This document shows, piece after piece, positions 29,718 through 63,456 of a stretch of 64,000 bases of DNA. Both the position numbers and the translations under genes were made by a program. Within the stretch, counting starts at the first letter, position 1; every line of letters begins with the position of its first letter. The notes beneath the pieces are model-generated. The model ran no database searches and was not told the DNA's origin. It worked only from the letters and a program-made list of their open reading frames with translations. Origin of the DNA: Candidatus Heimdallarchaeota archaeon (GTDB lineage Archaea > Asgardarchaeota > Heimdallarchaeia > Heimdallarchaeales > Heimdallarchaeaceae); NCBI GenBank assembly GCA_019057815.1, contig JAHLWR010000010.1, positions 1 through 64,000 of the forward strand, in the 5' to 3' direction.

Positions 29718-29754
29718 GACTCGGATTGGAAACCGGGTCTCAAAAGTGTTAGAA

Positions 29755-30126: not shown

Positions 30127-30231
30127 TTGATTTATTAAGAAAGAGTAATTTAAACTTGAAAACAAACATGTTAGATAAAAAGAGTGATCAAAGACTTGAC
30201 AAAATTATAGAGGAAGGGTTATCTCAGTGGG

Positions 30232-32070: not shown

Positions 32071-32099
32071 TCAAATAATTTAGAGCCTTTCCTTCTTCT

Positions 32100-32543: not shown

Positions 32544-32621
32544 CTTCCTTCCTCTTTACTTGTTAGAACTTATCTGAAATACCCCAAGAACCTTTTTCTC
32601 ATCAACCCTTATATCTCTTAT

Positions 32622-40501: not shown

Positions 40502-40505
40502 CAAT

Positions 40506-41084: not shown

Positions 41085-41103
41085 ATGTCCATGGGATGGA
41101 AAA

Positions 41104-43109: not shown

Positions 43110-43171
43110 ATATCACTTTTAATTAATATACTCTAAAACAAAACATAAAAAATCACGATATCTCTTTTTCC

Positions 43172-44149
43172 GTGTTAATAAAAATAGCGACTAGAGTTCA
43201 TAATGAAGAATATTTTATGAAAACATTTCTTGATTATTATTTGGGATTAGAAGTTGATGAAATTCACATATATGATAGTTTCTCTACAGATAAAACGGAT
43301 AAAATAATAAATACGTATATAAAGAAATCAAAACCCATAATAAAAATCAATTTGAAAAAGGATTATCTTCATAGAGACTATTTTGAACAGGATAGACTTT
43401 GTAACGAAATATTAAATTATGCAATTGCTGATTTTCAGGAATCAAAAAAAGAAACATGGTGGATTTTTCCTGACATTGATGAATTTATACGAATTCCAAA
43501 TAATAGAAAGATTAAGGATCACTTTTTAAGAATAAAAGATATTTGTGTAAGGTTCCTATTTATCGATTGGTTTTTATCTCCAGATTTAATGTATAAAGAT
43601 ACAATAACAGCAAAAAAATTCTTAGATTTAATATATAATAAAAAATTAAAGGGAGAATATTTATTTCTATGGAACGATCCTTTTTATAAATACTATGCAA
43701 TAAAGCTAGATACTGGAGTTCTTTCCAAATATAACAAAATTAAAACACTTTCTGGTTTCCATAGATTCATAGTAAGAAATGAGATACTGTATCCTAGTGA
43801 TAATTCAATTCTTATTGTAGATCATCTGCGTGGAATACCTTATCCAAAACTTAAATTAAGAATAGATGATAGAAAGGAGTTATTAAAGAATCAGTCAGAT
43901 GATTGGGTTCTAGAACATTTTAAACTAGTAGAAGAAAAAGTGAGACAATATAAAGAAGGAGTTCTAGATAAACAATTACTTACATTTTATCAATTAGAAA
44001 AAAACAAAAATAGACTTACTGAATTTAGTGAGAATGACAGTATTTTTGATCGTATAATCACCCAAGATTTTTTAAGAGATCCTTTAGACTTTCGACCATC
44101 AAAATATAGAAATTATGATTTTAATAAGAGACATAATTGGAAAAGATGA
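43172..44149 (+). CDS. Glycosyltransferase family 2-like
   Basis: VHNEE..FLDYY, YDSFSTDKT and PDIDEF. Confidence 0.8.
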   Translation: MLIKIATRVHNEEYFMKTFLDYYLGLEVDEIHIYDSFSTDKTDKIINTYIKKSKPIIKINLKKDYLHRDYFEQDRLCNEILNYAIADFQESKKETWWIFPDIDEFIRIPNNRKIKDHFLRIKDICVRFLFIDWFLSPDLMYKDTITAKKFLDLIYNKKLKGEYLFLWNDPFYKYYAIKLDTGVLSKYNKIKTLSGFHRFIVRNEILYPSDNSILIVDHLRGIPYPKLKLRIDDRKELLKNQSDDWVLEHFKLVEEKVRQYKEGVLDKQLLTFYQLEKNKNRLTEFSENDSIFDRIITQDFLRDPLDFRPSKYRNYDFNKRHNWKR

Positions 44150-45135: not shown

Positions 45136-45786
45136 TCAAGAAATCCCCAAAAGTTTCAAATCAGTGAATTTATCCTCTAAGTTCGACCTTACACTTATAT
45201 CTAATTTAGCGTAATTTTCTTGTAACCAGCTCTTACAAAGACATAAAGAAAGCTCTAGTGCTAAATGGAAATCATTTTTCCAGTGCCCGAGTTTTTGAGG
45301 GCTTTCCCAACTCTCTCTTACAGAATTCACTTGAGAAAGAATATCTTTCACTGTACCATGAACTACACAAGATAGCTTTCGGTATAATTTTTGTAATTTA
45401 GCTTTCAACTCAGAAGGAAGTTTAGCTTCAACTTCAGTTCTAATATTCCCAATTCGAAATTTAAATCCCTTATCAATCTCATCTAATTCAAGTACATGAT
45501 TTGACCCATAAATAATAACAAATATCAGATCTATGATTTGTCTTAAGATGATTTGTCCTTCCTCATATAAATTATGCATTGCGAAGAAAATTGTAAATGC
45601 AAGATTTCTGCCAATCATATTAATTCTTTTCTGTGAGAAATCATTATGAGGAAAGATATTTCTAACCTCCATAAAGAGTAGTGCTTTCTCATAAAATGGT
45701 AAGAAAATCTTTATCTTTTTAGATTCTTCAATTATGTGATTTCTAATCCCTTCATCAAGATTAACAAAATCTTTTAAATGTGTCAT
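45136..45786 (-). CDS. HEPN-like helical protein
   Basis: ILRQIID and LYRKLSCVVHG resemble the degenerate HEPN (DUF5677-like) signature. Confidence 0.55.
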   Translation of the reverse strand: MTHLKDFVNLDEGIRNHIIEESKKIKIFLPFYEKALLFMEVRNIFPHNDFSQKRINMIGRNLAFTIFFAMHNLYEEGQIILRQIIDLIFVIIYGSNHVLELDEIDKGFKFRIGNIRTEVEAKLPSELKAKLQKLYRKLSCVVHGTVKDILSQVNSVRESWESPQKLGHWKNDFHLALELSLCLCKSWLQENYAKLDISVRSNLEDKFTDLKLLGIS

Positions 45787-45795
45787 TTTATCACT

Positions 45796-46104
45796 CTATC
45801 TGTCACTGAAAGCAGTATATATCTTATCAATGGTTTTTATTCCTGCATCACGATCCTCAAGAAGTCTGATTATTTCCGCTTTTCTAAACCTTGATGGGAT
45901 TTTAATATCTCTTCTTTTACATAAATGTCGAAGTTCAACGACTTTTAATTTCTCATAATCAGAAATTTCATCTGTTTCCCTGACAACTTCGATCATTTCT
46001 TTAAACTGTTTCGAAATAACAAATTTGGGGGCTTTCTTAAGCAACTTTGCTAAGTATTCAAGCTGTTTTGCTAATTCCCATGTGTTTGTTGGTTCTTCTT
46101 TCAT
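45796..46104 (-). CDS. Small protein with a Rho-N/SAP (HeH) nucleic-acid-binding motif
   Basis: LKVVELRHLCKRRDIKIPSRFRKAEIIRLL. Confidence 0.65.
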   Translation of the reverse strand: MKEEPTNTWELAKQLEYLAKLLKKAPKFVISKQFKEMIEVVRETDEISDYEKLKVVELRHLCKRRDIKIPSRFRKAEIIRLLEDRDAGIKTIDKIYTAFSDR

Positions 46105-46910
46105 TTTTCAACCTCTTTTATTACTCTCCGTGCAATCTCCACAAAAGGAGATCTATCATCTTTGTTATCAAGTGGTTTATGAGTTGATGGCCACTTGGAA
46201 TATGCTTGTATCTCCTTTATTTTGGTTAATATATTCTCTTTATATTCTATCTCCAACTCCTTTGTAATATTCTTATGGAAACTACTTCTTGTTGTTGGAA
46301 TCAAATTAATTACATAACCTAATAGTTGACAATTTATATGTTCTTTGATTTCTTCTAACTTCTTTTCAAGTATAATAAGTCCCTGTTGACTCATATAATC
46401 AGGTCTTATTGGTACGATATAATAATCAGAAGCACCGAGTGCTGCAATAACAAGTTCATCGAAGTCTGGAGGAGAATCTATAATACAATAATCGTAAGAT
46501 AGTGATTGAATTGGCTCCAAAGTTTTTTTGAGGTAGCTCTCTGAATAAGGTTTAGCAACAAGAATTCTTTTTTCTTCAAATAACCGGATACTAGATGGGA
46601 TAAGATCCATTTTCCCATTTTCAATTTTCCAAGGATTCAAAGTGATTATATCTGAAAGTCGGATTTTATTCTGTTCATCTATCAATCCTCCACTACTTTC
46701 TCTAAACAGATCTGCGATTGTTTTATTTGAACGATCTTTTTCTCTATAATTCTCCTCTTTCATTATTAATAGAGTAGCATTTGTTTGCGGATCCATATCA
46801 ATTAGAAGAACATCTTTGTTGAATGAACTTGAAAGCTCATAAGCTAAACCTACTGCGATTGTTGTTTTACCAACCCCTCCCTTCATATTTATTATACTTA
46901 GAACTATAAT
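46101..46910 (-). CDS. ParA/Soj-family ATPase
   Basis: KGGVGKTT, IDMDPQTNAT and IIDSPP; the first beta strand IIVLSIIN lies upstream of the ATG, implying an ATT/ATA start at 46910/46907. Confidence 0.9.
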   Translation of the reverse strand: MIVLSIINMKGGVGKTTIAVGLAYELSSSFNKDVLLIDMDPQTNATLLIMKEENYREKDRSNKTIADLFRESSGGLIDEQNKIRLSDIITLNPWKIENGKMDLIPSSIRLFEEKRILVAKPYSESYLKKTLEPIQSLSYDYCIIDSPPDFDELVIAALGASDYYIVPIRPDYMSQQGLIILEKKLEEIKEHINCQLLGYVINLIPTTRSSFHKNITKELEIEYKENILTKIKEIQAYSKWPSTHKPLDNKDDRSPFVEIARRVIKEVEK

Positions 46911-47647: not shown

Positions 47648-50590
47648 ATGAACAAAATAAAAATACTTGCATTGTCAGATGTTCGTATTCATGATTGGAA
47701 TCAAGTTGTTAATTATCTAAAACGCAATTATGAAAATGGGAATGTCATTGATTTATTGTTGTATGGAGGAGATGATGTTAATAAATTACTTAATTTAACC
47801 ATAGATGATTTCAGGAATTTGAACTATCATTATAAAATCTTTCAAAGTAAGAACTTTGATTTGACATATGCTGATCTAAAAGATGTAATTATGAGTGATT
47901 TATATTTAAGTAAAAATATAGATAAACTTGGAGAAATTCAGAATAAAAAATTAACCAATAGATTTATCAAAAAAACATCCAAAAAATCAAGAATTCACTG
48001 GAAATTAAAAACGCATCTTAAAGAAGATATCAACGAACTCCAAGAAAATCTCAATTATCCACATTTGAAATATTTTAGAGAAGACAAATGTTTAATTTCT
48101 ATTTTCCCTAAAAAAATAATTCCTATCAAGATTGAAAATTCTAAAGATATTTACAATCATTGTCAAAAAGAACATAAGAAATCACTTAAATTTCTTGATA
48201 ATTTTATTTCAGATCTTAATCAATTAAGAAATGCTAATTCAATCATGCTCTACAAAACATATAGAAGATTACTTAAAGCTACTAAAAACACCAAAACATA
48301 TCATAACAATAAAAAGAAAATACTAAGTCTTCTGGAAAAGATTTTAGAAAAATTTAGTTTAAACATATATGATATTAGTCAAGAATCCATTATTTTTAAT
48401 AATAGAAAAATAAGTATCCGTTTAAGTTCTTATCTTTTTTTTGAAACTGAAGGATTATTAAGAAAAGAACACTGTTCGATAGCATTTTTATATAAAACAT
48501 TGAATTTTTTTAGAAAATTCTGTATGATATATGAACATCTGATTAATCAAGATTCAGATCTAAAAGAAATTTTTTTTGAAGATCCCTTTTATAATTGGAG
48601 AGTTCTAATACTACAAATAGAACAAAAATCCATATTGAAAGAAATTAAGAAATATATAAAATATGGTGTTGCTTTAGTTTGTGGAAATGATGATTTTGAG
48701 GATTCCATAGAGAGGATAAAATTCTATGATTGTTTTAATCTACAAGAAAAACCACTGTTCTTTAGAAATCTAACAATAATTGGTTTAGAAGGATCTGAAG
48801 ATAGAGAACTAGATAAATATAGCAAAAATAGAGAGCTATTTAGAGAACCTAGATCTAATGTTGAGAAAATTAGAGTAGGAATTGGACCAACAATCTTTCC
48901 GATTAGAGAACAAGAAAAAAAACTACATAATCATATATCACTAATTGAAGAAAAAGCACCTGAGAATAAGATCCTAATAGTTTCTCATTCTCCACCTTTA
49001 GGTATTTTAGATTTAGCTTATAGATTTGGATGTAATCATATAGGTAGTATAGTATTAAGAGAATTTATAGATAAATTTCGGAAAAAAAATTGTGGAATTA
49101 TTTGCGGTCATGTTCATTCTTGGGGAGGTAATAAGAGCATTTACAAAGGAGTTCCTATTTACAACATCTCATGTCATGATATGACGAGTAAAGGGGATTA
49201 TCCCCCATTTAATGCTTTATTTCTAGAAGTTGATAAAAATGGAGATATCATATATGAAGATATCTTTAATATTCTTATTGCAGAAAAAGAGAAATATAGA
49301 AATCAACCAACTTCCGTTCTCTCCAATATCGGTAAAAAGAGACAAATAATGTTGGAAAAAATTGGAATCAACTCAATTGGGGAATATGCAAAAATAGACT
49401 ATGATGAGCTCTTCCTAAATTTGTATAACCTTTATAAAGAAATAGGTGACAAATTTTATTGGGGGTTTTATCATAAGACATATTGGGGCGCAAAATTTCT
49501 ACTTAAAGAAATTGATAAACCAAAAAAGCTAGATACCATAGAATATGAAAGAAAGAACGCCATTGTTTTGGATTTAGAAACTGAATTAGTACAAGATAGA
49601 ATGGCACAAGACTTCAGTAATACTCGTATTTGGATGATTGGAATATATCATGTTGAAAAATGTAAACTCAAACAATTCTATTTAGGCAATTACGATAATA
49701 TCAGAGACATGCTGGTTGATTTTCTTTCTTGGATTTTTGAGAATGAGATAGAAACGATATTTGTTTACAGTTCAAATAAATTCGATGAGAAAATCTTAAA
49801 CACCAATTTAGAAAGATTTGTATATAAATCTGGAAGGGGAATATTACCCCTAGAGTTTTCAAAATGGAGTATTAACCATTTATTCGTTCCTAAAGACTTC
49901 CCATCTTCTCCTAAATATGTTAATTTATTCGGAGAATGGATAAAAAAGCTTTGTTTACCCTCCTACAGACTTGCAGAAATGTCCAAGCTAATTTTTAATA
50001 AAGAAGATACTATAACTGGTTTTAATTGTGGTCAAATAGGATCTCACTTAATTATATCTAGAAAAGAAGATTATGGAATATTGGAATGCAAATACTGCAA
50101 AGATTTGGTACAAAAAGTTAAGAAAAAAAATGAAGATGATGTTGTTTTTACTTCTAAATTGTTAGACTACTTTGAGAAATTAGAAGTAAGTTCCAATGAG
50201 AAAAAAGAAATTAAAAAATCTGTTAGAAAGAAATCTGGAGATGGTTTTAAATGTATTTCTTATAAAAACGGAATGAAAAATTGTTATGATAATAGAAAAC
50301 TAAATCAGAAAGAATATCTCTGTTACAAAATAGTTGAAAAAATGTTAAAGTTTGGAGAGAGTCATAGAGATGAGAGCTCAAGTTTTCAAGAAGAATACCA
50401 AATTCAAATGAAAACCACATTCAGTGATATATCATTAAAAACTTGCCAAATAACTTATTTTTATAATCAAGGAAGAGTAAGAATAAAGAGGAATATTGAA
50501 AGACATAAACATCAAAGAGTTGGTATAGACATAATAAAACTAACAAAAAACCAACTTCTTGAGCTTGAAAAACTGACTGATAAAATTTAA
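47648..50590 (+). CDS. Metallophosphoesterase + HhH + RNase H-like (YprB-type) exonuclease fusion
   Basis: LSDVR, GGDD, CGNDD, SHSPP and CGHVH; NIGKKR..LEKIGI; LDLETE, SNKFD and NEDDV. Confidence 0.75.
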   Translation: MNKIKILALSDVRIHDWNQVVNYLKRNYENGNVIDLLLYGGDDVNKLLNLTIDDFRNLNYHYKIFQSKNFDLTYADLKDVIMSDLYLSKNIDKLGEIQNKKLTNRFIKKTSKKSRIHWKLKTHLKEDINELQENLNYPHLKYFREDKCLISIFPKKIIPIKIENSKDIYNHCQKEHKKSLKFLDNFISDLNQLRNANSIMLYKTYRRLLKATKNTKTYHNNKKKILSLLEKILEKFSLNIYDISQESIIFNNRKISIRLSSYLFFETEGLLRKEHCSIAFLYKTLNFFRKFCMIYEHLINQDSDLKEIFFEDPFYNWRVLILQIEQKSILKEIKKYIKYGVALVCGNDDFEDSIERIKFYDCFNLQEKPLFFRNLTIIGLEGSEDRELDKYSKNRELFREPRSNVEKIRVGIGPTIFPIREQEKKLHNHISLIEEKAPENKILIVSHSPPLGILDLAYRFGCNHIGSIVLREFIDKFRKKNCGIICGHVHSWGGNKSIYKGVPIYNISCHDMTSKGDYPPFNALFLEVDKNGDIIYEDIFNILIAEKEKYRNQPTSVLSNIGKKRQIMLEKIGINSIGEYAKIDYDELFLNLYNLYKEIGDKFYWGFYHKTYWGAKFLLKEIDKPKKLDTIEYERKNAIVLDLETELVQDRMAQDFSNTRIWMIGIYHVEKCKLKQFYLGNYDNIRDMLVDFLSWIFENEIETIFVYSSNKFDEKILNTNLERFVYKSGRGILPLEFSKWSINHLFVPKDFPSSPKYVNLFGEWIKKLCLPSYRLAEMSKLIFNKEDTITGFNCGQIGSHLIISRKEDYGILECKYCKDLVQKVKKKNEDDVVFTSKLLDYFEKLEVSSNEKKEIKKSVRKKSGDGFKCISYKNGMKNCYDNRKLNQKEYLCYKIVEKMLKFGESHRDESSSFQEEYQIQMKTTFSDISLKTCQITYFYNQGRVRIKRNIERHKHQRVGIDIIKLTKNQLLELEKLTDKI

Positions 50591-51470: not shown

Positions 51471-52997
51471 TTACTTTGAGACAAACCTAGCATTCTGTTT
51501 TATCTTTGGATATTTCTGAATATTATCTAGATCTTTAAGAGATTTTAGAACAACATAGTATTCACTTTTTAGTTTAAATATCTCATAGGGAAACTTAAAG
51601 GGTTTTAATTTAACACCTTGTTTCTTCTCTTTTTTGGTTATAAAAAGTTCCATATGGTCAATCTTTTCAGCTTCTTCAGGTAATTTTGGAGGGACGATTG
51701 TCCTTGTTACAGTAATTTTTTTAGGTATTTTGTCCTCAAATTTCTTTGTGGTAACTGGTTTTTCTTTTAAGAGTTTATTCATTTCACTTAAATCCTTTGT
51801 CTCTCTTTTACCTTGATCATCGAAAAATTCTGCTATTATTTCCTTTTTCAGAATATCTCTACCTTTTGGAATTTGAATAAAACCAACATCACAATCTTGC
51901 ACAGATTGTTTTTCCTTCCATTCCAAGGGAGCAGATTCAATCCAATTTTTCGCAATTTCTTCTAATTCACTTAATGAATTGTTAGAAAGCTTTATTCCGA
52001 CTTCAAATCCTTCATCCAATCCTCTCTTCTCAAAATTCGCTGTCATTACTATACCAAGTTCATTTTCTGAATCCATGATAAATTTAGCGTGAAGATATTT
52101 GTAAGCTAAAATCCTTACACCGTTTTTTGCAGCTGCTTCAACAAACGGATAATTTTTTTCCTTTGGTCTAGTTAGAATTGTAAGTTTTTTCTCTTTACAA
52201 AAATTAATCAAATCTTGTGCAATTTCATGTTTAATGTCAAAACTGTAACTAGATATAATTAGTTCGGAAGAAGCATTTTTGATTAATTTAGAAATTTCTT
52301 CTTTAAGAGTTCTAGAGGAATAAGAAGTATTGATAATGGCATCTTTTGCACTAATATCTTTGAGTTTAATAGTTTTAACATCATCCCAATGCCCTATTCT
52401 TGTAAGTTCTTGTTTACTTTCTAACCAGAAGCCTTTACGAAAAAGGTTGAAAAGGCTTGATGTTTCATCTTTATCTAATATTATTCCTATCTCTTGATTT
52501 CTAGTTAAAGCTTCTTTGGTAAAGTTTGCAGTTGATAAAAATCCTTTCTTATTTTCTGTAGTTGGATCAATGAGCAAAAATTTAGCATGTAGATGTTCAC
52601 TTGTTCTTGCTAGTACTTTACCTGTAAGTTTACTCAACATCATTTTGTGTTCTTCTAAGGTTTTTTTATCGAAATCAGATTGTTCATCTTTGTATTCTTT
52701 CTCAAGTTGAGCATCTGTAGAAAATAAAAGATAACACCTTACACCTCTTTCACTTGCATTAATAATTGATTTAATAATTCTAGTATCACTTAAAATAAAT
52801 GAGCACAACATTACAGTATGTTTTGCGCTTTTGATTGCCCCAATTAACAACTTATGGAAATCATCAGATTCATTTCCAATTTGAATGACCGTAGAGAAGG
52901 TTGTTGAATCTATTTTTCTATGTCTTCTTTCTTTCCAATGCGCTGGAATTGTATACTCGTATTGATAACTATTGTTTTGTTCTTTTTCTTTAATCAA
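51471..52997 (-). CDS. Double-PLD nuclease (Mokosh MkoB-like)
   Basis: Two HxK motifs: HAKFLLID..STANF and HAKFIMD..MTANF. Confidence 0.85.
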   Translation of the reverse strand: MIKEKEQNNSYQYEYTIPAHWKERRHRKIDSTTFSTVIQIGNESDDFHKLLIGAIKSAKHTVMLCSFILSDTRIIKSIINASERGVRCYLLFSTDAQLEKEYKDEQSDFDKKTLEEHKMMLSKLTGKVLARTSEHLHAKFLLIDPTTENKKGFLSTANFTKEALTRNQEIGIILDKDETSSLFNLFRKGFWLESKQELTRIGHWDDVKTIKLKDISAKDAIINTSYSSRTLKEEISKLIKNASSELIISSYSFDIKHEIAQDLINFCKEKKLTILTRPKEKNYPFVEAAAKNGVRILAYKYLHAKFIMDSENELGIVMTANFEKRGLDEGFEVGIKLSNNSLSELEEIAKNWIESAPLEWKEKQSVQDCDVGFIQIPKGRDILKKEIIAEFFDDQGKRETKDLSEMNKLLKEKPVTTKKFEDKIPKKITVTRTIVPPKLPEEAEKIDHMELFITKKEKKQGVKLKPFKFPYEIFKLKSEYYVVLKSLKDLDNIQKYPKIKQNARFVSK

Positions 52998-54096
52998 AAG
53001 AAATAACCTCCTCTAATAACATGTCTTCTGGAGCCTTGAGAAACCAATATTTTTGAGAACCAAATTCAAGTTCGTCAAGAAGTTCATCCCTTTTTGGTAT
53101 ATCTAGTTTAAAATCTTTTAAATCAGAGAATTCATCAAGCATTTCTTTCCATTGAATTTCATACTGATTACCTACAAGATATAGGAAGCATTTACGTTCT
53201 AAAAATATAGTTTTAGCCCATAATATCGCACTTATCTGACAATCTGGAAAGATTGAAACATCATAAAATTTTACTTGTGAAAAATTGCCTAAATCTCCAA
53301 GTTTAATGCTCTTTTTATCAAAGTTTTTTAGAAAACTATTTACCTCAGATAATTGCAAATTTGAAGGATTCTGAGGAATTCTCCATCTCTTTAGGTCTGC
53401 ATTGGGTGAGATTATTTTAAGTAACTGATCAACCAAAAGTTTGTGTTCATATCCTTCAGGGAATGGAAAAGAAAATTCCTTGTTTTGGATAACTACTTTA
53501 GATTTCCATTTTCCTTCAGAATAAGTAAGAAGGATATCTAAATTTACCACCGAATTTCTATTAACTATTCCTATCTTATTTATTTCATGTATATCCACCA
53601 ATCTTGGCCGTTTTTCAAGTGTTCTAAGTTTAGTACCTTCTGTTTTTAAAACATGATTAGGTAAGACAATTTTTTTCTCTGTTCTCCCGTCTAGAGATTC
53701 TTTTAATTCTCTATCCAAATTTGGGTCTAATCTTTTAAAATCAATAATCACTTGTGGCAATAAAACATCTTTGACTGTTCGAATTTCAAAAGCACCTTCA
53801 TCTGGTGTTAAAATAGTCTCTTCTTCTAGTGCCTCAAATCCTCTGGGAGACAAAGAATAATCACTATCAATCAAATCTAATATCTTTAGTTCTTCTAGTA
53901 TATTTATAACAAATTTCTCTGAAAAACTTTGAAACAAGGTCTTATTCATATATTTAACCGAATTTTCTTTCTTTTCTTCAGCTTCTTGAACTGCTTTAAG
54001 AAGTGGTAAAAGTTCTGGTCTTCTTTCACTTATAAAAACACTCATCCTTACTGAATAAGAGACACTAGATATCTGTCTTTTTAGTACTATTCTCAT
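52990..54096 (-). CDS. Hypothetical protein with an N-terminal winged-helix-like segment
   Basis: LEELKILDLID...LSPRG; overlaps the PLD gene by 8 nt. Confidence 0.7.
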   Translation of the reverse strand: MRIVLKRQISSVSYSVRMSVFISERRPELLPLLKAVQEAEEKKENSVKYMNKTLFQSFSEKFVINILEELKILDLIDSDYSLSPRGFEALEEETILTPDEGAFEIRTVKDVLLPQVIIDFKRLDPNLDRELKESLDGRTEKKIVLPNHVLKTEGTKLRTLEKRPRLVDIHEINKIGIVNRNSVVNLDILLTYSEGKWKSKVVIQNKEFSFPFPEGYEHKLLVDQLLKIISPNADLKRWRIPQNPSNLQLSEVNSFLKNFDKKSIKLGDLGNFSQVKFYDVSIFPDCQISAILWAKTIFLERKCFLYLVGNQYEIQWKEMLDEFSDLKDFKLDIPKRDELLDELEFGSQKYWFLKAPEDMLLEEVISFD

Positions 54097-54102
54097 TTTA
54101 TC

Positions 54103-56877
54103 TCACCATATTTTTTTAGATTCAACTCTTTCAGCAAGTTGCTGCAAAATTTCTGACCTTTTTTGAATCTCCTTGAACAATTTTTTATTTCCAACGATAA
54201 CTAGTTGATACTTTGCTCTTGTTAATGCTACATTTAATCTATTAGGAGTATCTAAGAATCCCAATCCTCTACTTCTAACTAGTGATAAATATACAATATC
54301 AGCTTCATGACCTTGAAAGCGATCAACGGCACATAGTTCAATCACTACATTTTTTTCAGGAAGATAAAAAGTTCTAGTTCTTCTACTTTTTAAATAAGAT
54401 TGAAGTTTTTTTCTGATTAAATTTTCTTGACTAAGATAAAAGGGTAATATTGCAATTTTCCAAGGTTTATTATCCTTCCTTCTGTTATCCGAAGTCCACA
54501 TTAAAAGATCTTTGATTTCTTTTATTATTGCATTTGCTTCCTTGGAATTACTATTTTTATGTGATTGATTGATTTCTCTGTTTGAAAGCCTTATGTCAAT
54601 CCAAACTATCCTATTTTTGTAATTAGGATATTCAAATTGCCTTTCTTCTGAGATATATTGGGGGTCTTGTAATGCTTCATTATCATAGAAAAATTCTCGT
54701 GGAAAACTAGATATACTAGGATGCATTCGATGTTGAAACCTTAAAATCTTATGACGGTGTTTCATTACATTTTTAACGGGTAGCCCATCAGTTATTATCA
54801 ATCCAATATCCTTTTCTTTTTGAGATTGACTCCTCTCAAAACCCTTCTGTAGAAGTTCAATAATGGAAGGAAATGCTAATCTTTTTACTTGATCCAAATC
54901 AGATAGAAATTTTGTCCTTCTAATGTCACTCCAATGATTTGGAATTAATTTTTCTATTTGCTTCTTGTATCTGTTATCCACAAGACTCCTTAACTCATAA
55001 TCACGAACTAATCGCCAACCTATAGCCTCACTCCATGTTTGATCATTTGATATCTTGAGATTAATCTCATAATTTTCTTTCAGAACCATTCTTATTTTTC
55101 TTTTCCATCTTCTAAGATCATCATACAGAGAAGATAACTCTATTGGTTGTAAAGAACTTGCATCGTGTTCTACATAAGAATTTATACTCAGAGGAAGAAA
55201 TTCTTCGTTTTTTTCGAAATCTGCCTTTGTTCCAAATATAATAGAAGCACCGAGTAAATTATAAAATTCCATTTTATTCAAATCTGATAGTACATAGTAG
55301 GGGATAGTACTTGGAATAAGTTTTTCTAGAAGTTCATCATTATGCAATGGTTTAGCTAACAGTTTCAAACACTTGATTGTATGATTTTTGTTAATTTTCT
55401 GGATTTCTTCAAAATTATTGACTAATGCAATTATATTTCCTTCTTCAGGAGCAAAGGTTATAATATTACTGACAACACCGTCTTCATCAACATAAGGTGG
55501 AAGCTGTTTTATATCTCCTACAATTATATGACGTTCTGCAATTAAAGCAGGAACAAGAAATTCTTGAAAAGTTGTTTTACTAGCTTCATCAAGAATTAAT
55601 ATATCATAAGGTCTCATTGATGCTGTTTTACCTTCAAACCTTAATTTCTCAATTTCTGGATGTTTAAGAATACCAATGGTTGTTCCACAAACTAAATTTG
55701 CAGCTCTTACAAACACACGTTTCATATAATCGGGAGTTGTTTTCTCATCAGATTCTAAAATTCCTAACATCATATCTTGTGATTCAGTTTTGTTCTTAAT
55801 TGATCTCAAATTTTTTCTCAATTTTTCCTTCTCAGTTTCCCAAAAAGAATCAAGCTGATATTCAGTTGCCAAATCTGATATTCTGTCTGTTTTACCAATT
55901 CTAATAGGAAGAACATACTGTTTAACTTTTTCATAAACATCTGAATCTTCATCCATAAGTTTCTCTATCACATTGTCTACTGCTACATGAGTTGAAGCTA
56001 CAAGTAGAATTTTTAAGTCTCTTTTTAACGCTTGGTAAATTAGCTCACATATAGTTGTTGTTTTTCCTGAACCAGGAGGACCCTCTAAAATTGCTAGGTC
56101 AGGAGTACCAAGAGCAATTTTAACAAATTCTCTTTGATCTACATTGCCTGACCTAAGATCGTCTGTCAAAAATAACCACTCATTATTTCGAATTGGATGA
56201 GGAATAACATCATCAAATTTTACAGTTCTTATATTTTCGAATAGTCTAATCAGATTTCTGTTGTGTTTAAGAGGACGATTTAGGAGTTGCTCTAGAGATT
56301 GGTTGATCACATCAAGTTGATACAAGTTTGGTCTTAAATATAATCTCATTCTGTTTCTTTTATTATTGATATCCTCTTTTTTTAGTACTAGTATGTCATA
56401 TGGAGGGTATGTTGCTAAGACTTTGATACTTCTTGGATTTTCTAGATGTTTAGTGGGAAAAACTTCTTTTGAATTCAAAAACTGTTCTTTTTTATGCTGA
56501 TAGGTTTCTAAACCCTCGCTATTCTGGGGTTCTATACATTTATATAAGACCCCTCTTCCATTAGTAGATAGCTTAGTTACTCGATCTAGTTGTTTTTTCA
56601 ATCTTTTTTTTCGTTTGATTTCCTTTTTATCATAACCTCCTAAATAGAGATCGTTTTCAGTTGTATAGTCCTCAAGCAGATAAAACTCCTCAGTCATTAA
56701 ATCTTCTACTTCAAACCTCTCTACAGTAATATATATTCGCTTAACTCTTGACGTATACATTATTCTATCAATAAAACGGAAATATGGTTTAATTCCATGG
56801 AGTGTTGTCCACATAATTGATTTTACATCTCTTTCAGATAACCTCTCATCTAAGTTCTCATAATAAAGAAAAGACAT
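54103..56877 (-). CDS. SF1B helicase (UPF1/DNA2/MOV10-like, AAA_11 + AAA_12)
   Basis: GPPGSGKT, THVAVDN, LDEAS, GDIKQLPP, QHRMHP, VDRFQGHE and RLNVALTRAK. Confidence 0.92.
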   Translation of the reverse strand: MSFLYYENLDERLSERDVKSIMWTTLHGIKPYFRFIDRIMYTSRVKRIYITVERFEVEDLMTEEFYLLEDYTTENDLYLGGYDKKEIKRKKRLKKQLDRVTKLSTNGRGVLYKCIEPQNSEGLETYQHKKEQFLNSKEVFPTKHLENPRSIKVLATYPPYDILVLKKEDINNKRNRMRLYLRPNLYQLDVINQSLEQLLNRPLKHNRNLIRLFENIRTVKFDDVIPHPIRNNEWLFLTDDLRSGNVDQREFVKIALGTPDLAILEGPPGSGKTTTICELIYQALKRDLKILLVASTHVAVDNVIEKLMDEDSDVYEKVKQYVLPIRIGKTDRISDLATEYQLDSFWETEKEKLRKNLRSIKNKTESQDMMLGILESDEKTTPDYMKRVFVRAANLVCGTTIGILKHPEIEKLRFEGKTASMRPYDILILDEASKTTFQEFLVPALIAERHIIVGDIKQLPPYVDEDGVVSNIITFAPEEGNIIALVNNFEEIQKINKNHTIKCLKLLAKPLHNDELLEKLIPSTIPYYVLSDLNKMEFYNLLGASIIFGTKADFEKNEEFLPLSINSYVEHDASSLQPIELSSLYDDLRRWKRKIRMVLKENYEINLKISNDQTWSEAIGWRLVRDYELRSLVDNRYKKQIEKLIPNHWSDIRRTKFLSDLDQVKRLAFPSIIELLQKGFERSQSQKEKDIGLIITDGLPVKNVMKHRHKILRFQHRMHPSISSFPREFFYDNEALQDPQYISEERQFEYPNYKNRIVWIDIRLSNREINQSHKNSNSKEANAIIKEIKDLLMWTSDNRRKDNKPWKIAILPFYLSQENLIRKKLQSYLKSRRTRTFYLPEKNVVIELCAVDRFQGHEADIVYLSLVRSRGLGFLDTPNRLNVALTRAKYQLVIVGNKKLFKEIQKRSEILQQLAERVESKKIW

Positions 56878-57758
56878 TAGCTAACACTCCTTGGCTTGAG
56901 ATTCCAGTTATAAATTCCACCACGTTTCTTGAATTTTTCATAGTGCCAACCTACTTGTTGAATTGCTGAATAAGGGTCTACTTCAAGAATAGATAGACTA
57001 TATTTCAGATAACCCTCAGAGTTCTGAAAAAACCTACCCATAGCGTCAAGCATAAGATAAGAACCTCTCATAAGTTCATTATTCTCTGCAATGGGATTCA
57101 ATGATTCATGCTTCTGTACAAAATTGTCAAATTGCTCTGATGATATCTGAAGAGACTGAAAATATTCATCATTCTGACCTTTTACAGATAATACTTGGAA
57201 TACTTTCCATCTTTGAGGATTGAGTTCAATAATCAAATCAGTCATCTCTTCTTCCCAGTTCATACTAGTAACAACAGTATTGATTTTAAGTTTGATACCA
57301 GCTGTATGAATTACTTTTACTATTTCTTTAATCTTTTGGATATGATTTCCTGAACCTCTTCCAAGTTTATATTGTGTTTCTTCTTTTGAACTATCTAAAC
57401 TTAAAGCAATCCAATCTATGTAAGATTTGTACTCTTCGATAAAATTACCCGTTAGTAATGAACCACTTGTTATCAGCATTGTTGTCATATCTAGCTTTTT
57501 AGCTTCTATTATTAAATCTCCTAAATGAGGACAGAGTAACGGTTCTCCACCTGTAAGAGATAATTTCTCTGTTCCTGCAGAATTGAGGATTGAAGGTATT
57601 TTTAGTGCTTCTTCTTTTGATAATAAAGATTTTATCTCATTAAAGGTTCCAAAACAGAATTTGCATTTATTCGTACATCTAGGCCACAAATGCCAGTTTA
57701 CACTTATCAAAGGAAAAGAGGAATTATTAAGACAAGAATAATTCTCTTTCATTTTCAT
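56877..57758 (-). CDS. vip: Viperin-family antiviral radical SAM enzyme (putative ddhNTP synthase)
   Basis: SVNWH..CTNKCKFCF, GGEPLL, KINTVV, RWKVFQVL..GQND, M.GSYLMLD..GRF and C-terminal F.KRGG.Y.W. Confidence 0.92.
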   Translation of the reverse strand: MKMKENYSCLNNSSFPLISVNWHLWPRCTNKCKFCFGTFNEIKSLLSKEEALKIPSILNSAGTEKLSLTGGEPLLCPHLGDLIIEAKKLDMTTMLITSGSLLTGNFIEEYKSYIDWIALSLDSSKEETQYKLGRGSGNHIQKIKEIVKVIHTAGIKLKINTVVTSMNWEEEMTDLIIELNPQRWKVFQVLSVKGQNDEYFQSLQISSEQFDNFVQKHESLNPIAENNELMRGSYLMLDAMGRFFQNSEGYLKYSLSILEVDPYSAIQQVGWHYEKFKKRGGIYNWNLKPRSVS

Positions 57759-58228
57759 TAATGAGTAGCTCCTAGGATTATATCAGATTTTGATAGATTC
57801 ACGAAATTTGACTGTTTGAAAAAGAAGAAATCAGTCGCTTCAGTTGCTAGATTTCCATTAGCTATTTTATAAGGAAACACTCTATTGAAGTCTAAATCAT
57901 AAAACATTGTTTGAAATTCTCTAAATCTGTCGTTCGAAAGAATAGCAGTATCTAATTCTCTAGCGTAAGCTAGTATAGCTATGTCATCATATATTCTTGG
58001 GTCAAGTAAAAGAACATCATCATCCTCTTGAAATCTTTTCTTGAATTTCTTGAATCCTGGTAAAATAAAGAGTGGCGATACTCCATTATTCTTTGCCCAA
58101 ATTCGGACATAATCAATATTATGAAGATTGCTTTCTCCTTTTGGATGTTTTATAACATTAAGTCCATCAACTATTAAGATATTTTTTTGGTTTTCTCTTT
58201 TTGTTTTTCGTTTTGTTTGGAGTTGCAT
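57758..58228 (-). CDS. Zc3h12a/Regnase-like NYN (PIN-fold) ribonuclease
   Basis: LIVDGLNV, YDDIAIL and ILSNDRFRE; ATG at 58228 or TTG at 58249. Confidence 0.8.
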   Translation of the reverse strand: MQLQTKRKTKRENQKNILIVDGLNVIKHPKGESNLHNIDYVRIWAKNNGVSPLFILPGFKKFKKRFQEDDDVLLLDPRIYDDIAILAYARELDTAILSNDRFREFQTMFYDLDFNRVFPYKIANGNLATEATDFFFFKQSNFVNLSKSDIILGATH

Positions 58229-58270
58229 TAAATATACAAAGAAGAACAAGATATTAAAAGTTTTTCTTTT

Positions 58271-58317
58271 ATATTTAAAATTAATATTGTATTATACAAA
58301 ACAATCTTTTTAAATAT
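58271..58317. promoter_or_regulatory. Back-to-back TATA boxes flanking a palindromic putative operator
   Basis: ATATTTAAAA (58271-58280) and its reverse complement TTTTAAATAT (58308-58317) bracket TTGTAT-T-ATACAA (58287-58299). Confidence 0.6.
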
Positions 58318-58335
58318 GTCTGCTCTCACAACATT

Positions 58336-58980
58336 ATGCGCAACTTGCATATTGCGACTGTTGGTAAATCACCTGGTCCAATCATTGAAGGAATTAGAGT
58401 ATATCCTATTGATGATTTGTATATGTTGTATAATGAGGGGTCCCATAAGGAAGCTTTAGAAATAAAAAAATCAGCAATCAATTGGAAGCTTAAGTGCAAC
58501 ATGATTGAGGTTGATCAATTTGATATCGAAAATATTTTTGTTACAATCCTGTTGATTCAAAAACGAAACCTTGGAAGTAAAATTTACATAAACGTAACAG
58601 GAGGTACAAAAATAATGTCAAACGCAGCTTTTCTTGCAGGATATCTAATAGGTGCTACTATTTATTATATTAGAGAAGCTCAAGAAAATGAATCTCTTCA
58701 AGATTGTGTTATTGAGCTTCCTGTACCTAAAATACAATTAGATGACATCGATGAAAATCAACAAAAAATTTTGTCTCATTTGCTAAAAAATAATGGAAAG
58801 ATAACGACAGGAACTACAGAACTAAGTAAGAACCTTCATTTAAAACCTCAATTAATAAGTTATCATCTTAAAAGATTGGAAATTGCTAATCTAATCATAA
58901 ACGAAAAAAAAGGAAGAATAAATATTATAAGTTTAACAAGCGCAGGTAGGTTTGCAGCAAAATACCATGGTATTTTATAA
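58336..58980 (+). CDS. CARF + winged-HTH transcriptional regulator (Csa3/DUF6293-like)
   Basis: HIATVG..PII.G, IYINVTGGTKIM and ELPVP; C-terminal HTH ELSKNLHLKPQLISYHLKRLE. Confidence 0.85.
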   Translation: MRNLHIATVGKSPGPIIEGIRVYPIDDLYMLYNEGSHKEALEIKKSAINWKLKCNMIEVDQFDIENIFVTILLIQKRNLGSKIYINVTGGTKIMSNAAFLAGYLIGATIYYIREAQENESLQDCVIELPVPKIQLDDIDENQQKILSHLLKNNGKITTGTTELSKNLHLKPQLISYHLKRLEIANLIINEKKGRINIISLTSAGRFAAKYHGIL

Positions 58981-58999
58981 ATTTGAGAGATGGAAAATA

Positions 59000-59950
59000 T
59001 TGAATATTCTCATCACAGGAGGTTTGGGTTTTATTGGTTCTCATCTTGTTAAATTCCTTTTAGAAAAAACAGAGAACAATTTAATCATTTTAGATAACTT
59101 ATCAACTGGTAAGAAATCAAATATTTACAATCTGGTTAATAAAGAGAATATCTCCAGAGTAGAAATTATTAAGGAAACAGTTGAAAATGTAGACCAAATA
59201 AAGCTAAAAAATATTTCAAAAATATTCCATTTGGCAAGTCATGCTAGTCCAACAGATTTTAGAAAACACTCTCTAGAAATTATGATGACTAACTCTATTG
59301 GAACAAAGAAAGTTTTAGATATAGCGCTTAAGAACAATGCTACATTCATCTTAGCTTCAACATCTGAAATATACGGTAATCCATTAATTCATCCACAAAA
59401 CGAAGATTATTATGGTAACGTTAATACACTAGGAATAAGAGCATGTTATGATGAATCTAAGCGTTTTTCGGAAACACTTTCGATGATTTATAAAAGAGAT
59501 AAAAATTTGGATGTTAGAATTCTTAGAATTTTCAACACATATGGAACTAATATGAGACTTAATGACGGGAGAGTTATACCAACTTTCTTGAAACAAGCAT
59601 TAACAGGTAACCCCATAACTGTCAGAGGGGATGGAAAACAATCAAGATCGTTATGTCATGTTTCTGACCTTATAAATGGGATTTATTTGATTTCGGTTAT
59701 TAAAAACATTAAATACAATGTGTACAACATTGGGAATCCAGAAGAAATAGAAATAATCGAGTTAGCTGAAATGATAAAAAAAATGACTTGTTCATGTTCG
59801 AAAATCAAATATATAGAGGAATTAGACGATGAACCTCGAAGAAGAAGACCGGATATTAATAGAATAAAGGACGAAACAGGTTGGTCACCCACTATTTCGT
59901 TAAGGGAGGGACTTAAGAAGATTATACCACATTACAAAGAGATGTTATAA
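59000..59950 (+). CDS. UDP-glucuronate decarboxylase-like NAD-dependent epimerase/dehydratase
   Basis: GGLGFIG, HLASHASP, STSEIYG, YYGNVN..G.RACYDESKR and RIFNTYG; TTG start at 59000. Confidence 0.9.
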   Translation: MNILITGGLGFIGSHLVKFLLEKTENNLIILDNLSTGKKSNIYNLVNKENISRVEIIKETVENVDQIKLKNISKIFHLASHASPTDFRKHSLEIMMTNSIGTKKVLDIALKNNATFILASTSEIYGNPLIHPQNEDYYGNVNTLGIRACYDESKRFSETLSMIYKRDKNLDVRILRIFNTYGTNMRLNDGRVIPTFLKQALTGNPITVRGDGKQSRSLCHVSDLINGIYLISVIKNIKYNVYNIGNPEEIEIIELAEMIKKMTCSCSKIKYIEELDDEPRRRRPDINRIKDETGWSPTISLREGLKKIIPHYKEML

Positions 59951-59966
59951 AAGAAAAAAGAATAAG

Positions 59967-60965
59967 GTGGCAGCAATTTCAGTTAAAAACAATAAATTTG
60001 CTAATATTGACAAACAAAATTCTTTAGTTATTGATGTGACCTATAAATGTAATTCTAGCTGTTATTACTGTCAATGGGGAGAATCAAGGAAATCGTCAAA
60101 GGAAATAAATTATGAGAAATTACTTGTTCCTGAAAAAACTTTGTCATCTATAGGTATTGAGCGAGTTGTTCTTTCAGGAGGAGAACCACTTCTTCATAAT
60201 AGAATAATAGACATAATAGATTATTACAACCAGAAAAAAGTTGATTCCATTATCTTATTAACAAATGGAATATTATTAGATCTGTCAAAACTTCAACTAT
60301 TGTTAAAGCATGGAGTGACTGGAATGACTTTCTCAATTGATTCACTTGATTTTGAAGTCATGAAAAAATCCAGAAACGTTACAAAAGAAGTACACCAAAA
60401 AATTATCAATAATATTAATTCGATTGTGAAATTTCGAGAAACCAAAAGTTTTGAATTGGGAATAAATTGCGTTATCTCCTCTTCCAATTTGCGTTGGGAT
60501 TATCTTCATCCTCTTGTTCAGTTTTGTAATCAAAACAACATTGATTGGCTGAAATTTCAGCCAATTTTTGACGATGGTTATCTATCGTTAAATGCACCTC
60601 AACTTAAACTGAGTAAGAATCATTCGGAAGACGTCATTGAAATAGGAAAAAAGATACTAAATTTTGCAACAATAAACACCAATAGTATAGAATTCTGGAA
60701 ATCACTTTCATCGGTTTTGCATGGTAAAAAACTTCTAGGTAAGTCATGTGGGCTAGTTAAAAGACAAACTATTCTAATTAGAGGGGATTTGAAATTTTGC
60801 TATTGGTTAGATAATCCAATTTACTCTTCATGTTCTATGGAATTAACTAAAGAGAAAATTCAAGAAATAAGAGATAAATTTAAAGATTCAAAAGAAAGGT
60901 GTAAAACAGGAATGTATTGTTTCTGTCTACAATCTTTATCACATAAATGGGATATTTCAAAATGA
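59967..60965 (+). CDS. Radical SAM protein
   Basis: CNSSCYYC, SGGEPLL and LTNG; Cys-rich C-terminus. Confidence 0.88.
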   Translation: MAAISVKNNKFANIDKQNSLVIDVTYKCNSSCYYCQWGESRKSSKEINYEKLLVPEKTLSSIGIERVVLSGGEPLLHNRIIDIIDYYNQKKVDSIILLTNGILLDLSKLQLLLKHGVTGMTFSIDSLDFEVMKKSRNVTKEVHQKIINNINSIVKFRETKSFELGINCVISSSNLRWDYLHPLVQFCNQNNIDWLKFQPIFDDGYLSLNAPQLKLSKNHSEDVIEIGKKILNFATINTNSIEFWKSLSSVLHGKKLLGKSCGLVKRQTILIRGDLKFCYWLDNPIYSSCSMELTKEKIQEIRDKFKDSKERCKTGMYCFCLQSLSHKWDISK

Positions 60966-62083
60966 ATGCTTCAAGTATTGATATCATAATTCCCTCATTT
61001 AGAGCGGATTCAGAATATCTAATTCCAATTTTCAATTTAGATAAACCTGAAAATGTCGAAATTAGATATTTTCTCATAATTGATAATCCAGAAATCGAAA
61101 TTTGTGAAACATTAAATGAATATTTAGAACACAAGAATGTTTGTGTTATAAAAAATGAAACAAATTTGGGAGCATCAGCTTCTAGAAACAAGGGTATTGA
61201 GGAAGGGACTGGGGATTGGTTACTATTTTTAGATGATGACATTACTGTAAATCGAGATTTATTAATTAAGTACATTAATGCGATTACAGAATCAGAAAGT
61301 AAAGTGCCTGGGTTTGTTGGAGTTACAGATTTTCTGGATCCTATTAATAGTTTCACAAAAGGTGTTAATGCAAGCGATATTCTTACATTCTTTCCTTTAG
61401 CTGAATATGAGGGAGAGATGTCTTGGGGTGTTACTGCTAATCTCCTGCTTAAAAGAGAAGCTGTCGGAAATTTTAGATTATAAGATGAAATATTCCCGAA
61501 ATTTGGAGGTGGAGAAGATATTGATTTGTGTTTAAATATTGTTCAACAAACAGGTATCAAATTCAAAACTATTCCTGAAGCTAAGGTTACTCACCCATGG
61601 TGGAATGATGGAAAGAGATCATATACACGATTCAGAAGATGGGCTTATGGTGACAGCATATTACCTAAACTTTTTCCGCAATATAAATATTATAATTTTC
61701 CCAATGTAATTGAATCTTTAATCTTGTTTGCCGTTTTAGGGATTGTCTTATCTGTCCTAAAACTTTCACCTATCCCTCTTATCTTATGTTTAGGTTCTGT
61801 AATTCTAGGTGAGATACTAATTGAATGGATGAAGATAATCAAAAACAAAAAGATATATTCACTAATCACTGCTTTAGAATCAGTATTAATTCGAACATCA
61901 AATGATCTAGGAAGAGCATTAGGGAACATCAAAAGGTTAAACTTCGCTGGATTTATGCAGAGATTTGATTATTTTTGTGATGGTAAGCACATTAAGAATG
62001 AAAGGATTTGGGCAGGATTGAAAACATTGTCTTATTCCATCTTTGCATCCATATTTGTTTATTCTTTTTGGGTATTATGTTAA
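60962..62083 (+). pseudogene. GT2 glycosyltransferase with C-terminal TM helices, interrupted by one in-frame TAA
   Basis: ORFs 60947..61483 and 61526..62083 share a frame: FLDDD..GNFRL*DEIFPKFGGGEDIDLC. Confidence 0.8.
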
Positions 62084-62097
62084 AGGAAAGATATAGT

Positions 62098-63456
62098 ATG
62101 GTAAACGGAATCATTATGTCCAACAATTCAGAGAACATATCAATTGATAAAATACTGCAAATGTACTCAGAAGCTAAAAAAACTAATGATTATCAATTCT
62201 GGATATACACAGGTTTATTAGCTGAGATTTTGAAACAATATCATTATTCTATTGATTGTTATACAAATGCATTAAAAATGCAAATTTCTCCATTTTTAAG
62301 AACTTCTTTAGCAAGAGCACAAGCAGGAGTAGGTCAGTGGGAAGGTTCGCTTAAGACTTTATTGTCACTTAGCGTTAGTGAGTTTTCTTCTGTAATAAGC
62401 AACTATAATCTTTGCTTAACTATAGGTTTCCTTCCATATAATCTACAAAGAAAAGTAACTCAACATTTCAAGGAACAAGGTTTGATTGTACTTGATGATA
62501 TTGAAAATCTTGAAAATGCTTTAGCTGTAAGAGAGGAAAAGTACATAAATCAAAAATACAGGGATAGTTCACAACTTCAGATCCAAACTTATATAAAGTT
62601 CTCCAAACTTTTGATTGGTGATTTTGATCCTAGAAGAATGACTGAATTTCTACAGATGGGTTACACAGAAAATATTGCTCAGAAGATTCTAAAAACCAAT
62701 CCCGAAGCAGTAGAAACTTCAATTCTACGGAAAGCTAAATTAAAAGAACATGATAGAGAATATCAGAAACTTGATAGATTGGATGGTTGGTTAACTCCTC
62801 TGGAAGGAAGGGTCTTAGCTGTTTTAGCAGAAAATGTTGAATATAATTCAGTAATTGTGGAAATTGGTAGTTGGAAAGGGAAATCATCTTGTTTTTTAGG
62901 AACTGGTAGTAGTATAGGGAAAAAACCCTTAGTATTCTGCATAGATCCTCATAATTGGACGGATAATGTTGAAGTAGCAAATACTTTCAGCTCTTGGACG
63001 AGTACCATTGAATATTTGAGTCTAGAAAATTTAGTAATAAATATTCGTAAAGAATCTGAACATGTAGCAAGAGATTTTAGTGAAAATGTAGGATTGCTCT
63101 TTGTAGATGGGGATCATTCTAGAGAATCTCTAATCATAGATATTGAAAACTGGCTTCCCAAACTAGAAAAAGGTGCTTATATTGCTTTTCACGATGCATA
63201 TTTTCCTGATGTTTTCGAAGTACTTCAAGAAAGAATATTCAGAAGTGAAAAATTCAGAATTGTTGATTTTGTTGAAGGATTATTAATTGTTCAATTTTCA
63301 CCCAATAGAAATTCAACAAGAACCTACTCTGAACTTGTCATCTGGCTATATTTTATTTACAAATCACAAATATTCAAAAAATTAGAAGATAAAAGAGTTT
63401 CAGAACTAGTAAATATTGCATTATCTTATAGAGAGAATCTACAAGCAGGAGTTTAG
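62098..63456 (+). CDS. TPR-like + class I SAM-dependent methyltransferase (Methyltransf_24-like)
   Basis: GWLT..EG, VEIGSWKGKS, FVDGDHS and AFHD; N-terminal TPR-like helices; start uncertain (62098 or 62116). Confidence 0.8.
   Translation: MVNGIIMSNNSENISIDKILQMYSEAKKTNDYQFWIYTGLLAEILKQYHYSIDCYTNALKMQISPFLRTSLARAQAGVGQWEGSLKTLLSLSVSEFSSVISNYNLCLTIGFLPYNLQRKVTQHFKEQGLIVLDDIENLENALAVREEKYINQKYRDSSQLQIQTYIKFSKLLIGDFDPRRMTEFLQMGYTENIAQKILKTNPEAVETSILRKAKLKEHDREYQKLDRLDGWLTPLEGRVLAVLAENVEYNSVIVEIGSWKGKSSCFLGTGSSIGKKPLVFCIDPHNWTDNVEVANTFSSWTSTIEYLSLENLVINIRKESEHVARDFSENVGLLFVDGDHSRESLIIDIENWLPKLEKGAYIAFHDAYFPDVFEVLQERIFRSEKFRIVDFVEGLLIVQFSPNRNSTRTYSELVIWLYFIYKSQIFKKLEDKRVSELVNIALSYRENLQAGV

Follow-up and report, generated by a model that had tools for sequence, protein, structure and literature searches.

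Viperin ahead of a Mokosh-related helicase and nuclease module in a defence locus of a Heimdallarchaeal genome

Viperins are radical-SAM synthases of ddhNTPs, which act as chain terminators. Prokaryotic viperins, including viperin-kinase pairs, were reportedly described by Bernheim in 2021; viperins have so far been treated as stand-alone enzymes, with a kinase partner at most, and Asgard viperins have been tested alone. According to Shomar et al. (bioRxiv 10.1101/2023.09.13.557418), Asgard viperins are antiviral in E. coli. Mokosh type I, as set out by Millman et al. (bioRxiv 10.1101/2022.05.11.491447), consists of MkoA and MkoB. In one panel, given in bioRxiv 10.1101/2025.07.10.664194, Mokosh type II protected only against a single-stranded DNA phage, so the substrate of Mokosh itself is unsettled. 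Here we describe an operon that brings relatives of these systems together. It lies in the window, that is, the whole 64,000-nucleotide (nt) stretch of Candidatus Heimdallarchaeota contig JAHLWR010000010.1 that was analysed, and encodes an NYN RNase, a viperin, a UPF1-like superfamily 1 (SF1) helicase, a 368-amino-acid (aa) protein that we call X, and a PLD-family nuclease. We refer to the last three as the trio.

An earlier note, made from the sequence alone, had taken the five genes for one integrated anti-RNA/anti-transcription defence unit in a probable Asgard host. The host assignment is supported, as is a defence locus; anti-RNA action is established only for viperin's family and is no more than possible for the trio. 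We consider it rather likely that the operon is a Mokosh-related three-gene nuclease module co-regulated with a viperin (plus RNase) cassette, the modules being separable. The gene order is real and conserved, and the locus has the look of interchangeable defence modules under a shared promoter, not of one ancient machine.

The operon and the conservation of its gene order

Stop/start overlaps (TAATG) join NYN to viperin at 57758 and viperin to the helicase at 56877, as read directly at the junctions. A 6-nt gap (54097-54102) lies between the helicase and X, and X and PLD overlap by 8 nt (52990-52997), the TTG start in this overlap being backed by relatives that begin MIK. All five minus-strand genes are thus coupled as the earlier note had claimed. 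Its four enzyme identities (Regnase-type NYN, viperin, UPF1-like helicase and PLD) are backed by profiles, and the catalytic motifs of all four are intact. The extent that it gave the unit stands for the five genes and needs correction upstream, where NYN probably starts at ATG 58228 (TTG 58249 merely gives the longest frame) and where the divergent gene of a regulator with CARF and winged helix-turn-helix (wHTH) domains had been left out. The stretch lies within one contig of run X2, a run that is possibly the source sample; in run X5, 57248-59074 (the 5' part of viperin, NYN and CARF) are covered by a 3025-bp contig that shows 114 differences. The operon is therefore no assembly artefact.

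We surveyed 400 Asgard genomes, the host class being Heimdallarchaeia, and the best 80 viperin loci from metagenomes. Viperin was found in 27 of the 400 genomes and a strong match to X in 29. Both were present in 16 genomes vs. about 2 expected under independence (a descriptive comparison, as kin are not independent), and in most of these 16 the two genes were physically adjacent. Of the 16 genomes of the host class with a viperin, 11 had it directly ahead of the helicase, and the same link was seen in 10 of the 80 metagenome loci, with a CARF gene before viperin in 9 of the 10. The viperin-helicase order is beyond chance, and the full order viperin-helicase-X-PLD is kept across genomes. The chance juxtaposition that the earlier note had named as a refuting outcome was not what we found: the helicase clade has viperin as its companion in 11 genomes of the class and in 10 metagenome loci, and NYN too stands alongside the clade elsewhere (genome G022, P. 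syntrophicum MK-D1 and, in part, locus L283). Across this class, which among archaea is the nearest to eukaryotes, roughly two thirds of viperins stand at the head of an operon that includes the unnamed, Mokosh-related trio, under a CARF regulator.

The closest viperin to that of the window is in G022 (76%), and the closest helicase is in G004 (60%). Five f6-type loci (L014, L015, L229, L230 and L233) stay together in the viperin tree (100/100) and in the CARF tree (100/99), and their helicases split into two distant 100-support clades. The disagreement between viperin and helicase trees indicates that modules were swapped while the layout was kept. Two genomes of the same family, G005 and G024, have related viperins and no trio match. 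In the cultured carrier MK-D1 (L052 4493-13122; genome G142), all five genes occur along with two CARF genes and are arranged divergently: the pair of NYN and viperin, together with a CARF-wHTH gene, points away from CARF, helicase, X and PLD. The order in L283 is PLD, CARF, NYN, viperin.

These data bear on whether the five genes form one machine. The single integrated five-part unit of the earlier note is not borne out: both the trio and viperin often occur by themselves, 8 of 11 class-level operons lack NYN, and the trees show module swapping. In mechanistic form, ddh-terminated transcripts or NYN-cut RNA ends would load the helicase and activate X-PLD, the parts being synergistic or interdependent. 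We hold this to be unlikely, given more than 50 trio loci without a nearby viperin, the close-kin viperins of G005 and G024 without a trio, the missing NYN genes and the incongruent trees, although the translational coupling of all five genes argues for it, as do viperin ahead of at least three distinct helicase clades (non-Asgard archaea included), the reunion of the five genes in other layouts (MK-D1 and partly L283) and a nucleotide-type AAK-family kinase between viperin and helicase in several genomes (3 of the 11, seen in complete loci, plus a further one whose locus is cut). A cognate proposal, distinctly unlikely in our judgement, is an alarm-controlled Asgard relay in which ddh-terminated or NYN-cut transcripts are passed to helicase-X-PLD and Regnase-family RNases were repeatedly and independently recruited to viperin; if true, a viperin product would here be seen for the first time to feed a downstream effector.

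The window viperin itself matches NF038283 at 288 bits (cut-off 180), with CxxxCxxC at residues 28-35. In the CTP-type loop of 9dfw, the Cys is matched by N246 of the window viperin and the Lys by L251, so that no Lys is present here. The pocket is predicted to be of the promiscuous Asn type, a pattern that Shomar et al. (bioRxiv 10.1101/2023.09.13.557418) link to promiscuity. Separately, a 559-aa frame in G040 (L128:2248-3927) joins viperin to a preceding N-terminal region that looks like the beginning of a type I restriction subunit, with an AAK kinase next; it may be a fusion or a read-through remnant.

Table 1. Features of the viperin-trio locus (window coordinates)
Feature	Coordinates	Strand	Remark
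NYN RNase	57758..58228	minus	frame open up to TTG 58249
Viperin	56877..57758	minus	
UPF1-like SF1 helicase	54103..56877	minus	
Protein X, 368 aa	52990..54096	minus	
PLD-family nuclease	51471..52997	minus	
CARF-wHTH regulator	58336..58980	plus	divergent from operon
AT-rich region	58229..58335		putative divergent promoter

The helicase-X-PLD trio

The helicase is of the COG1112 type, with AAA_11/AAA_12 domains, Walker A at 266-273, DEAS at 430 and intact motifs III-VI. Its best PDB match is UPF1 (105 bits, short stretches only), and the PADLOC MkoA profile matches the helicase part only (1.7e-89). As the earlier note had observed, it has no kinase domain: no Ser/Thr kinase family matched in Pfam or NCBIfam, and only about 240 residues lie ahead of the helicase core. 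X, the extra subunit of that note, is conserved and matches no family. A word-index homologue search returned X alone, and an HMMER scan of representatives gave 100 homologues, which sit between the helicase and a PLD or PLD-like gene wherever the contig allows, with gaps mostly below 30 nt in 33 loci. The PLD protein (PLDc_2) carries two HxK motifs in one chain, H137/K139/D144 and H303/K305 being invariant in 34 homologues, and its profile matches Nuc, NucT, BfiI, PLD3 and poxvirus K4-type structures in the PDB.

In a helicase-alignment scan, helicase and X were found together in 35 bacterial loci from more than 10 phyla, none with viperin in the fetched flanks, as well as in Thermoplasmata and Methanobacteriota; 18 Asgard genomes have a trio without an adjacent viperin. 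Judged by sequence, these loci show helicase, X and PLD to be a fixed three-gene unit across bacteria and archaea, a widespread candidate for a defence system that the PADLOC profiles fail to recognise as a unit. In a FastTree tree, the window helicase falls inside a 99-support clade of eight Heimdall-class rows, all viperin-linked, and other Asgard trios are scattered among bacterial and other archaeal rows. A scan of viral contigs with the helicase found no relative. Weak viperin-profile matches near bacterial trios turned out to be NrdG-like 4Fe-4S proteins, not viperins. A second trio subtype, in bacteria and some Asgard genomes (L062, L066, L083, L087, L095, L105, L108, L109 and L114), has a PLD-like third gene without HxK motifs and is accompanied by a 520-aa AAA ATPase and an NrdG-like 4Fe-4S protein.

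The breadth of this distribution speaks to the eukaryotic parallels that had been drawn for the locus. Were it the ancestral form of the Regnase-1/UPF1 and MOV10L1/PLD6 pathways, inherited by eukaryotes from Asgard archaea, one could point to the best PDB matches (UPF1 for the helicase, KHNYN/ZC3H12 for the NYN profile), to a host in the Heimdall group and to the resemblance of Mokosh domains to MOV10L1/PLD6 noted in bioRxiv 10.1101/2022.12.12.520048. However, the helicase is far closer to bacterial trio helicases (33-39% identical over about 740 residues, E to 1e-155) than to UPF1, the trio helicases of Asgard archaea are interspersed with those of bacteria and other archaea, and the two-motif PLD chain has no Zucchini/PLD6 match in the PDB at E 0.01. 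In addition, NYN is an accessory, and Leao et al. (PMC11291487) inferred a bacterial origin for MkoA. This ancestry is extremely improbable. The counterparts claimed for the four recognisable parts hold at the family level; a more specific parallel is not supported, as the trio clade is common to numerous bacteria, the single PLD chain holds two HxK motifs, and 181 of the 400 Asgard genomes contain PF11977 domains.

The AlphaFold2 model of X (pLDDT 96) contains a wHTH at residues 25-93 (Z 9.8, root-mean-square deviation 1.9 over 67 residues). Beyond the wHTH, no known fold could be assigned to X: Foldseek found nothing in the PDB at E 0.001, neighbours in the Atlas were clusters without names (TM 0.73-0.81), and rows for wHTH-PRTase-associated (0.42) and PLD-fused proteins (0.29-0.31) were weak. 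The X-PLD complex model scored 0.80 against 0.15 for the best control, with at least 93% contact agreement between runs and partner pLDDT of at least 81; of 80 solved complexes 58 attained the mark used, which is roughly applicable to X-PLD, as did 2 of 110 mismatched pairs. Residues 345-367 of X contact PLD 60-61, 82-89, 126-129 and 186-191 in the model, and X W351 and D358 and PLD Y89 and W191 at the interface are near-invariant. The model supports binding, and X is predicted to be a beta/winged-helix scaffold that docks on PLD by its conserved C-terminal helices.

For comparison with Mokosh we used the two-gene Mokosh-type locus of E. coli ETEC H10407. Its MkoA is 26-35% identical to the window helicase in patches and falls outside the trio clade on a long branch. 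Its MkoB could not be aligned with the window PLD by BLASTP (E 0.09), and the MkoB profile matched the PLD domain only (1.7e-9). In the models (E, strand; H, helix), the MkoB N-terminus runs E6-23, H29-40, H45-52, H56-68, wing, H87-93, E105-113, E120-123 ... H215-234, and X runs E2-24, H29-41, H46-53, H60-72, H84-92, E95-107, E117-122 ... H218-229. The strand and helix order of MkoB, whose wHTH spans 25-97, is similar to that of X 1-230, and the same PDB chains align with both wHTHs, in an identical register. This is suggestive of X being laid out like the MkoB front end, and it is plausible from the models that X and PLD together correspond to a split MkoB.

The NYN RNase, the regulator and the surroundings

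NYN belongs to the Zc3h12a (Regnase/KHNYN/PRORP) family (PF11977, 29 bits, cut-off 23), with acidic motifs D28, D88-D89 and S105-N106-D107 (numbered from 58249). A single-sequence PDB search with the window protein gave no ZC3H12 match; a profile of viperin-adjacent NYNs matched KHNYN and ZC3H12A/B/C at about 1e-6. NYN heads the class-level operon in 2 of 11 cases, here and in G022 of the same family, one of the remaining contigs being cut at that point. It lies directly beside viperin in G137, G139, G142 (MK-D1), G175, G185 and G229 as well, making 8 of the 27 viperin-bearing Asgard genomes, to which 5 metagenome loci are added, mostly with no helicase alongside. No viperin was adjacent in 20 control loci of other small NYN genes, and a metagenome scan with the NYN protein found no relative.

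With so few operons carrying it, NYN might be a passenger from the surrounding sugar-modification cluster with no role in defence, the core then being CARF, viperin and trio. Its nearest relatives stand at the start of similar clusters in G053 and G079, upstream of epimerase, glycosyltransferase and radical-SAM genes like those flanking the window operon, and a single origin of all viperin-adjacent NYNs was rejected (approximately unbiased test, p 0.013; the group was named post hoc and has a long branch). We judge this very unlikely, since the G022 NYN, 56% identical and with its catalytic residues kept, shares the TAATG overlap with viperin, and at least two further recruitments of unrelated NYN clades to a place beside viperin suggest selection. 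In Loki-type archaea, the NYN paired with viperin is of another clade, outside which the same test, with the same caveats, places the window NYN. The pairing thus arose more than once, which favours function: Regnase-family RNases have been recruited to viperin repeatedly, and NYN appears to follow viperin, not the helicase, as an accessory to viperin.

Upstream, the CARF-wHTH gene begins 107 nt from the operon on the opposite strand and is the operon's most constant neighbour. It is a Csa3-like CARF3 protein (PADLOC CARF3 4.6e-50; Pfam CARF and wHTH), and a divergent homologue precedes viperin in G004, G036, G038, G041, G042, G054, G056 and Methanobacteriota locus L110. The Csa3-type CARF-wHTH family is represented by structure 6wxq. 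We predict from its domains that the protein is a ligand-gated transcription regulator. A 13-bp palindrome (58287-58299) has an identical copy at equal distance from the CARF start in G004 and variants in G054, G036 and G038. It may serve as an operator or represent overlapping TATA boxes; taken by itself, the palindrome falls short of significance, arising in 16% of shuffles of such DNA. A sigma-70 promoter scan, with a model ill-suited to archaea, was at chance level.

The genome itself holds a type III CRISPR-Cas operon (G000 contig C20, 463-8845) with an intact Cas10 (HD and GGDD), a possible source of cyclic oligoadenylate; a search for a SMODS cyclase in this genome found none. An alarm-sensing regulator recurs beside trios, as many Asgard trios carry additional CARF and PIN-type genes and 13 bacterial trio loci hold an activator of the sigma-54 type in which CARF is faintly detected (E 0.019). 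This activator is reminiscent of RtcR. In L068, L071, L072, L074-L078, L082, L100 and L107, the bacterial trio is followed by such a sigma-54-type AAA activator of 480 aa, its faint CARF signal at the N-terminus.

Around the operon, the locus breaks into a sugar-modification cluster, itself within a defence-rich region. The cluster (34906-44149 and 58952-63456; epimerases, glycosyltransferases, radical-SAM enzymes, carbamoyltransferase) is split by defence genes. On the plus strand, 47648-50590 encodes a 980-aa protein with split metallophosphoesterase-like motifs and a nuclease-like C-terminal part, converging on the PLD gene; it matched no Pfam or NCBIfam family and weakly matched PADLOC PDC-S10. 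A compact set of three minus-strand genes (45136-46886) comprises a ParA-like ATPase, a 102-aa SAP/HeH-domain protein and a 216-aa protein without a family. Consecutive plus-strand genes at 29016-34169 encode an AAA ATPase (IetA/TRIP13-like), an LmuB-like SMC protein and a 515-aa protein that ends in a SAVED domain. The defence-rich part at 306-26065 holds a PDC-M38A-like ParB protein, a KAP NTPase, an HNH protein, an AriA/PtuA-like ATPase with its partner and a DUF262-type protein. Related DNA-methylase-like genes, identified by motif only, lie near the operon in four genomes (L012, L014, L015 and G000 C33 64719-66515), suggesting a shared insertion hotspot.

Taken as co-regulated, separable modules, the operon might work as follows. 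On binding a nucleotide alarm, either Cas10 cyclic oligoadenylate or an RNA fragment, CARF-wHTH would turn the operon on, and this shared control would let several costly effectors be expressed together. Viperin would make ddhNTPs, probably from several NTPs, and stall viral transcription, as expected from its family, and NYN, as a partner of viperin rather than of the helicase, could add RNA decay. The helicase would use ATP to gate the PLD nuclease, whose target would be nucleic acid (RNA or DNA) of the invader or of the host, with X in the role that, in Mokosh type I, falls to a winged-helix front end fused to the nuclease. During an infection the modules would work side by side, and none should depend on the others.

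Several points weigh against this picture. That viperin has stayed ahead of different helicase clades may point to coupling tighter than shared regulation. An hhalign comparison of X (152 sequences) with MkoB (42) covers only the wHTH, at a probability of 5.6% (an unrelated CARF-wHTH control gave 3.6%), and X against a single MkoB or MkoA gave nothing. The window NYN groups, on a long branch, with the NYNs of the sugar-modification clusters in G053 and G079 and could be a local passenger, the locus being inside such a cluster. Finally, Cas10 was found in just 4 of the 11 carrier genomes tested (this one and 3 of 10 others) and, by the same search, not in the complete MK-D1 genome, so the identity of the nucleotide alarm is uncertain.

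Comparison with described systems

The earlier note's statement that no described system has this composition agrees with our searches: none matched in PADLOC, NCBIfam or the papers searched. Those papers, which included few from subscription journals, contained no trio, no viperin-helicase operon and no viperin-NYN pair in archaea. The papers on CapK/CapS, nuclease-NTPase and Adt1 do not describe this unit. The finding opens a direct test of archaeal viperin induction and of a possible cooperation of these viperins with RNA-decay enzymes.

The window viperin is a full family member, with the radical-SAM motif and an Asn-type pocket, and in its relatives a kinase gene adjoins, as in prokaryotic and Asgard viperins. 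The partners described for those, in Shomar et al. (bioRxiv 10.1101/2023.09.13.557418) and Leao et al. (PMC11291487), are kinases and a TPR protein; the words 'helicase' and 'NYN' are absent from the text of Shomar et al. NYN shares the PF11977 domain and acidic catalytic motifs with Regnase-1/ZC3H12, KHNYN, N4BP1 and PRORP. Unlike Regnase-1/ZC3H12, it is a stand-alone 156-aa domain without a CCCH finger, and no sign was found of its working with the helicase as Regnase-1 does with UPF1. The regulator resembles Csa3-type proteins in its CARF domain, C-terminal wHTH and divergent position ahead of a defence operon, but its gene lies away from a CRISPR locus, and Cas10 is missing from most carriers tested.

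Mokosh type II has helicase and PLD in one gene, whereas here they are separate reading frames with X between them. The likeness to Mokosh type I is a COG1112/UPF1-like helicase gene followed by a separate downstream PLD gene. In contrast to type I, the Ser/Thr kinase of MkoA is missing from the window helicase; all intact trio loci have three genes instead of two, the MkoB N-terminal region being fused to its PLD; and X is a separate 368-aa chain with an extra C-terminal part predicted to dock on PLD. Because the kinase domain and the two-gene layout are absent, the trio is no member of Mokosh type I as defined. It is best read as Mokosh-related and would work like Mokosh, and in the window it comes with a viperin, an NYN RNase and a CARF regulator attached.

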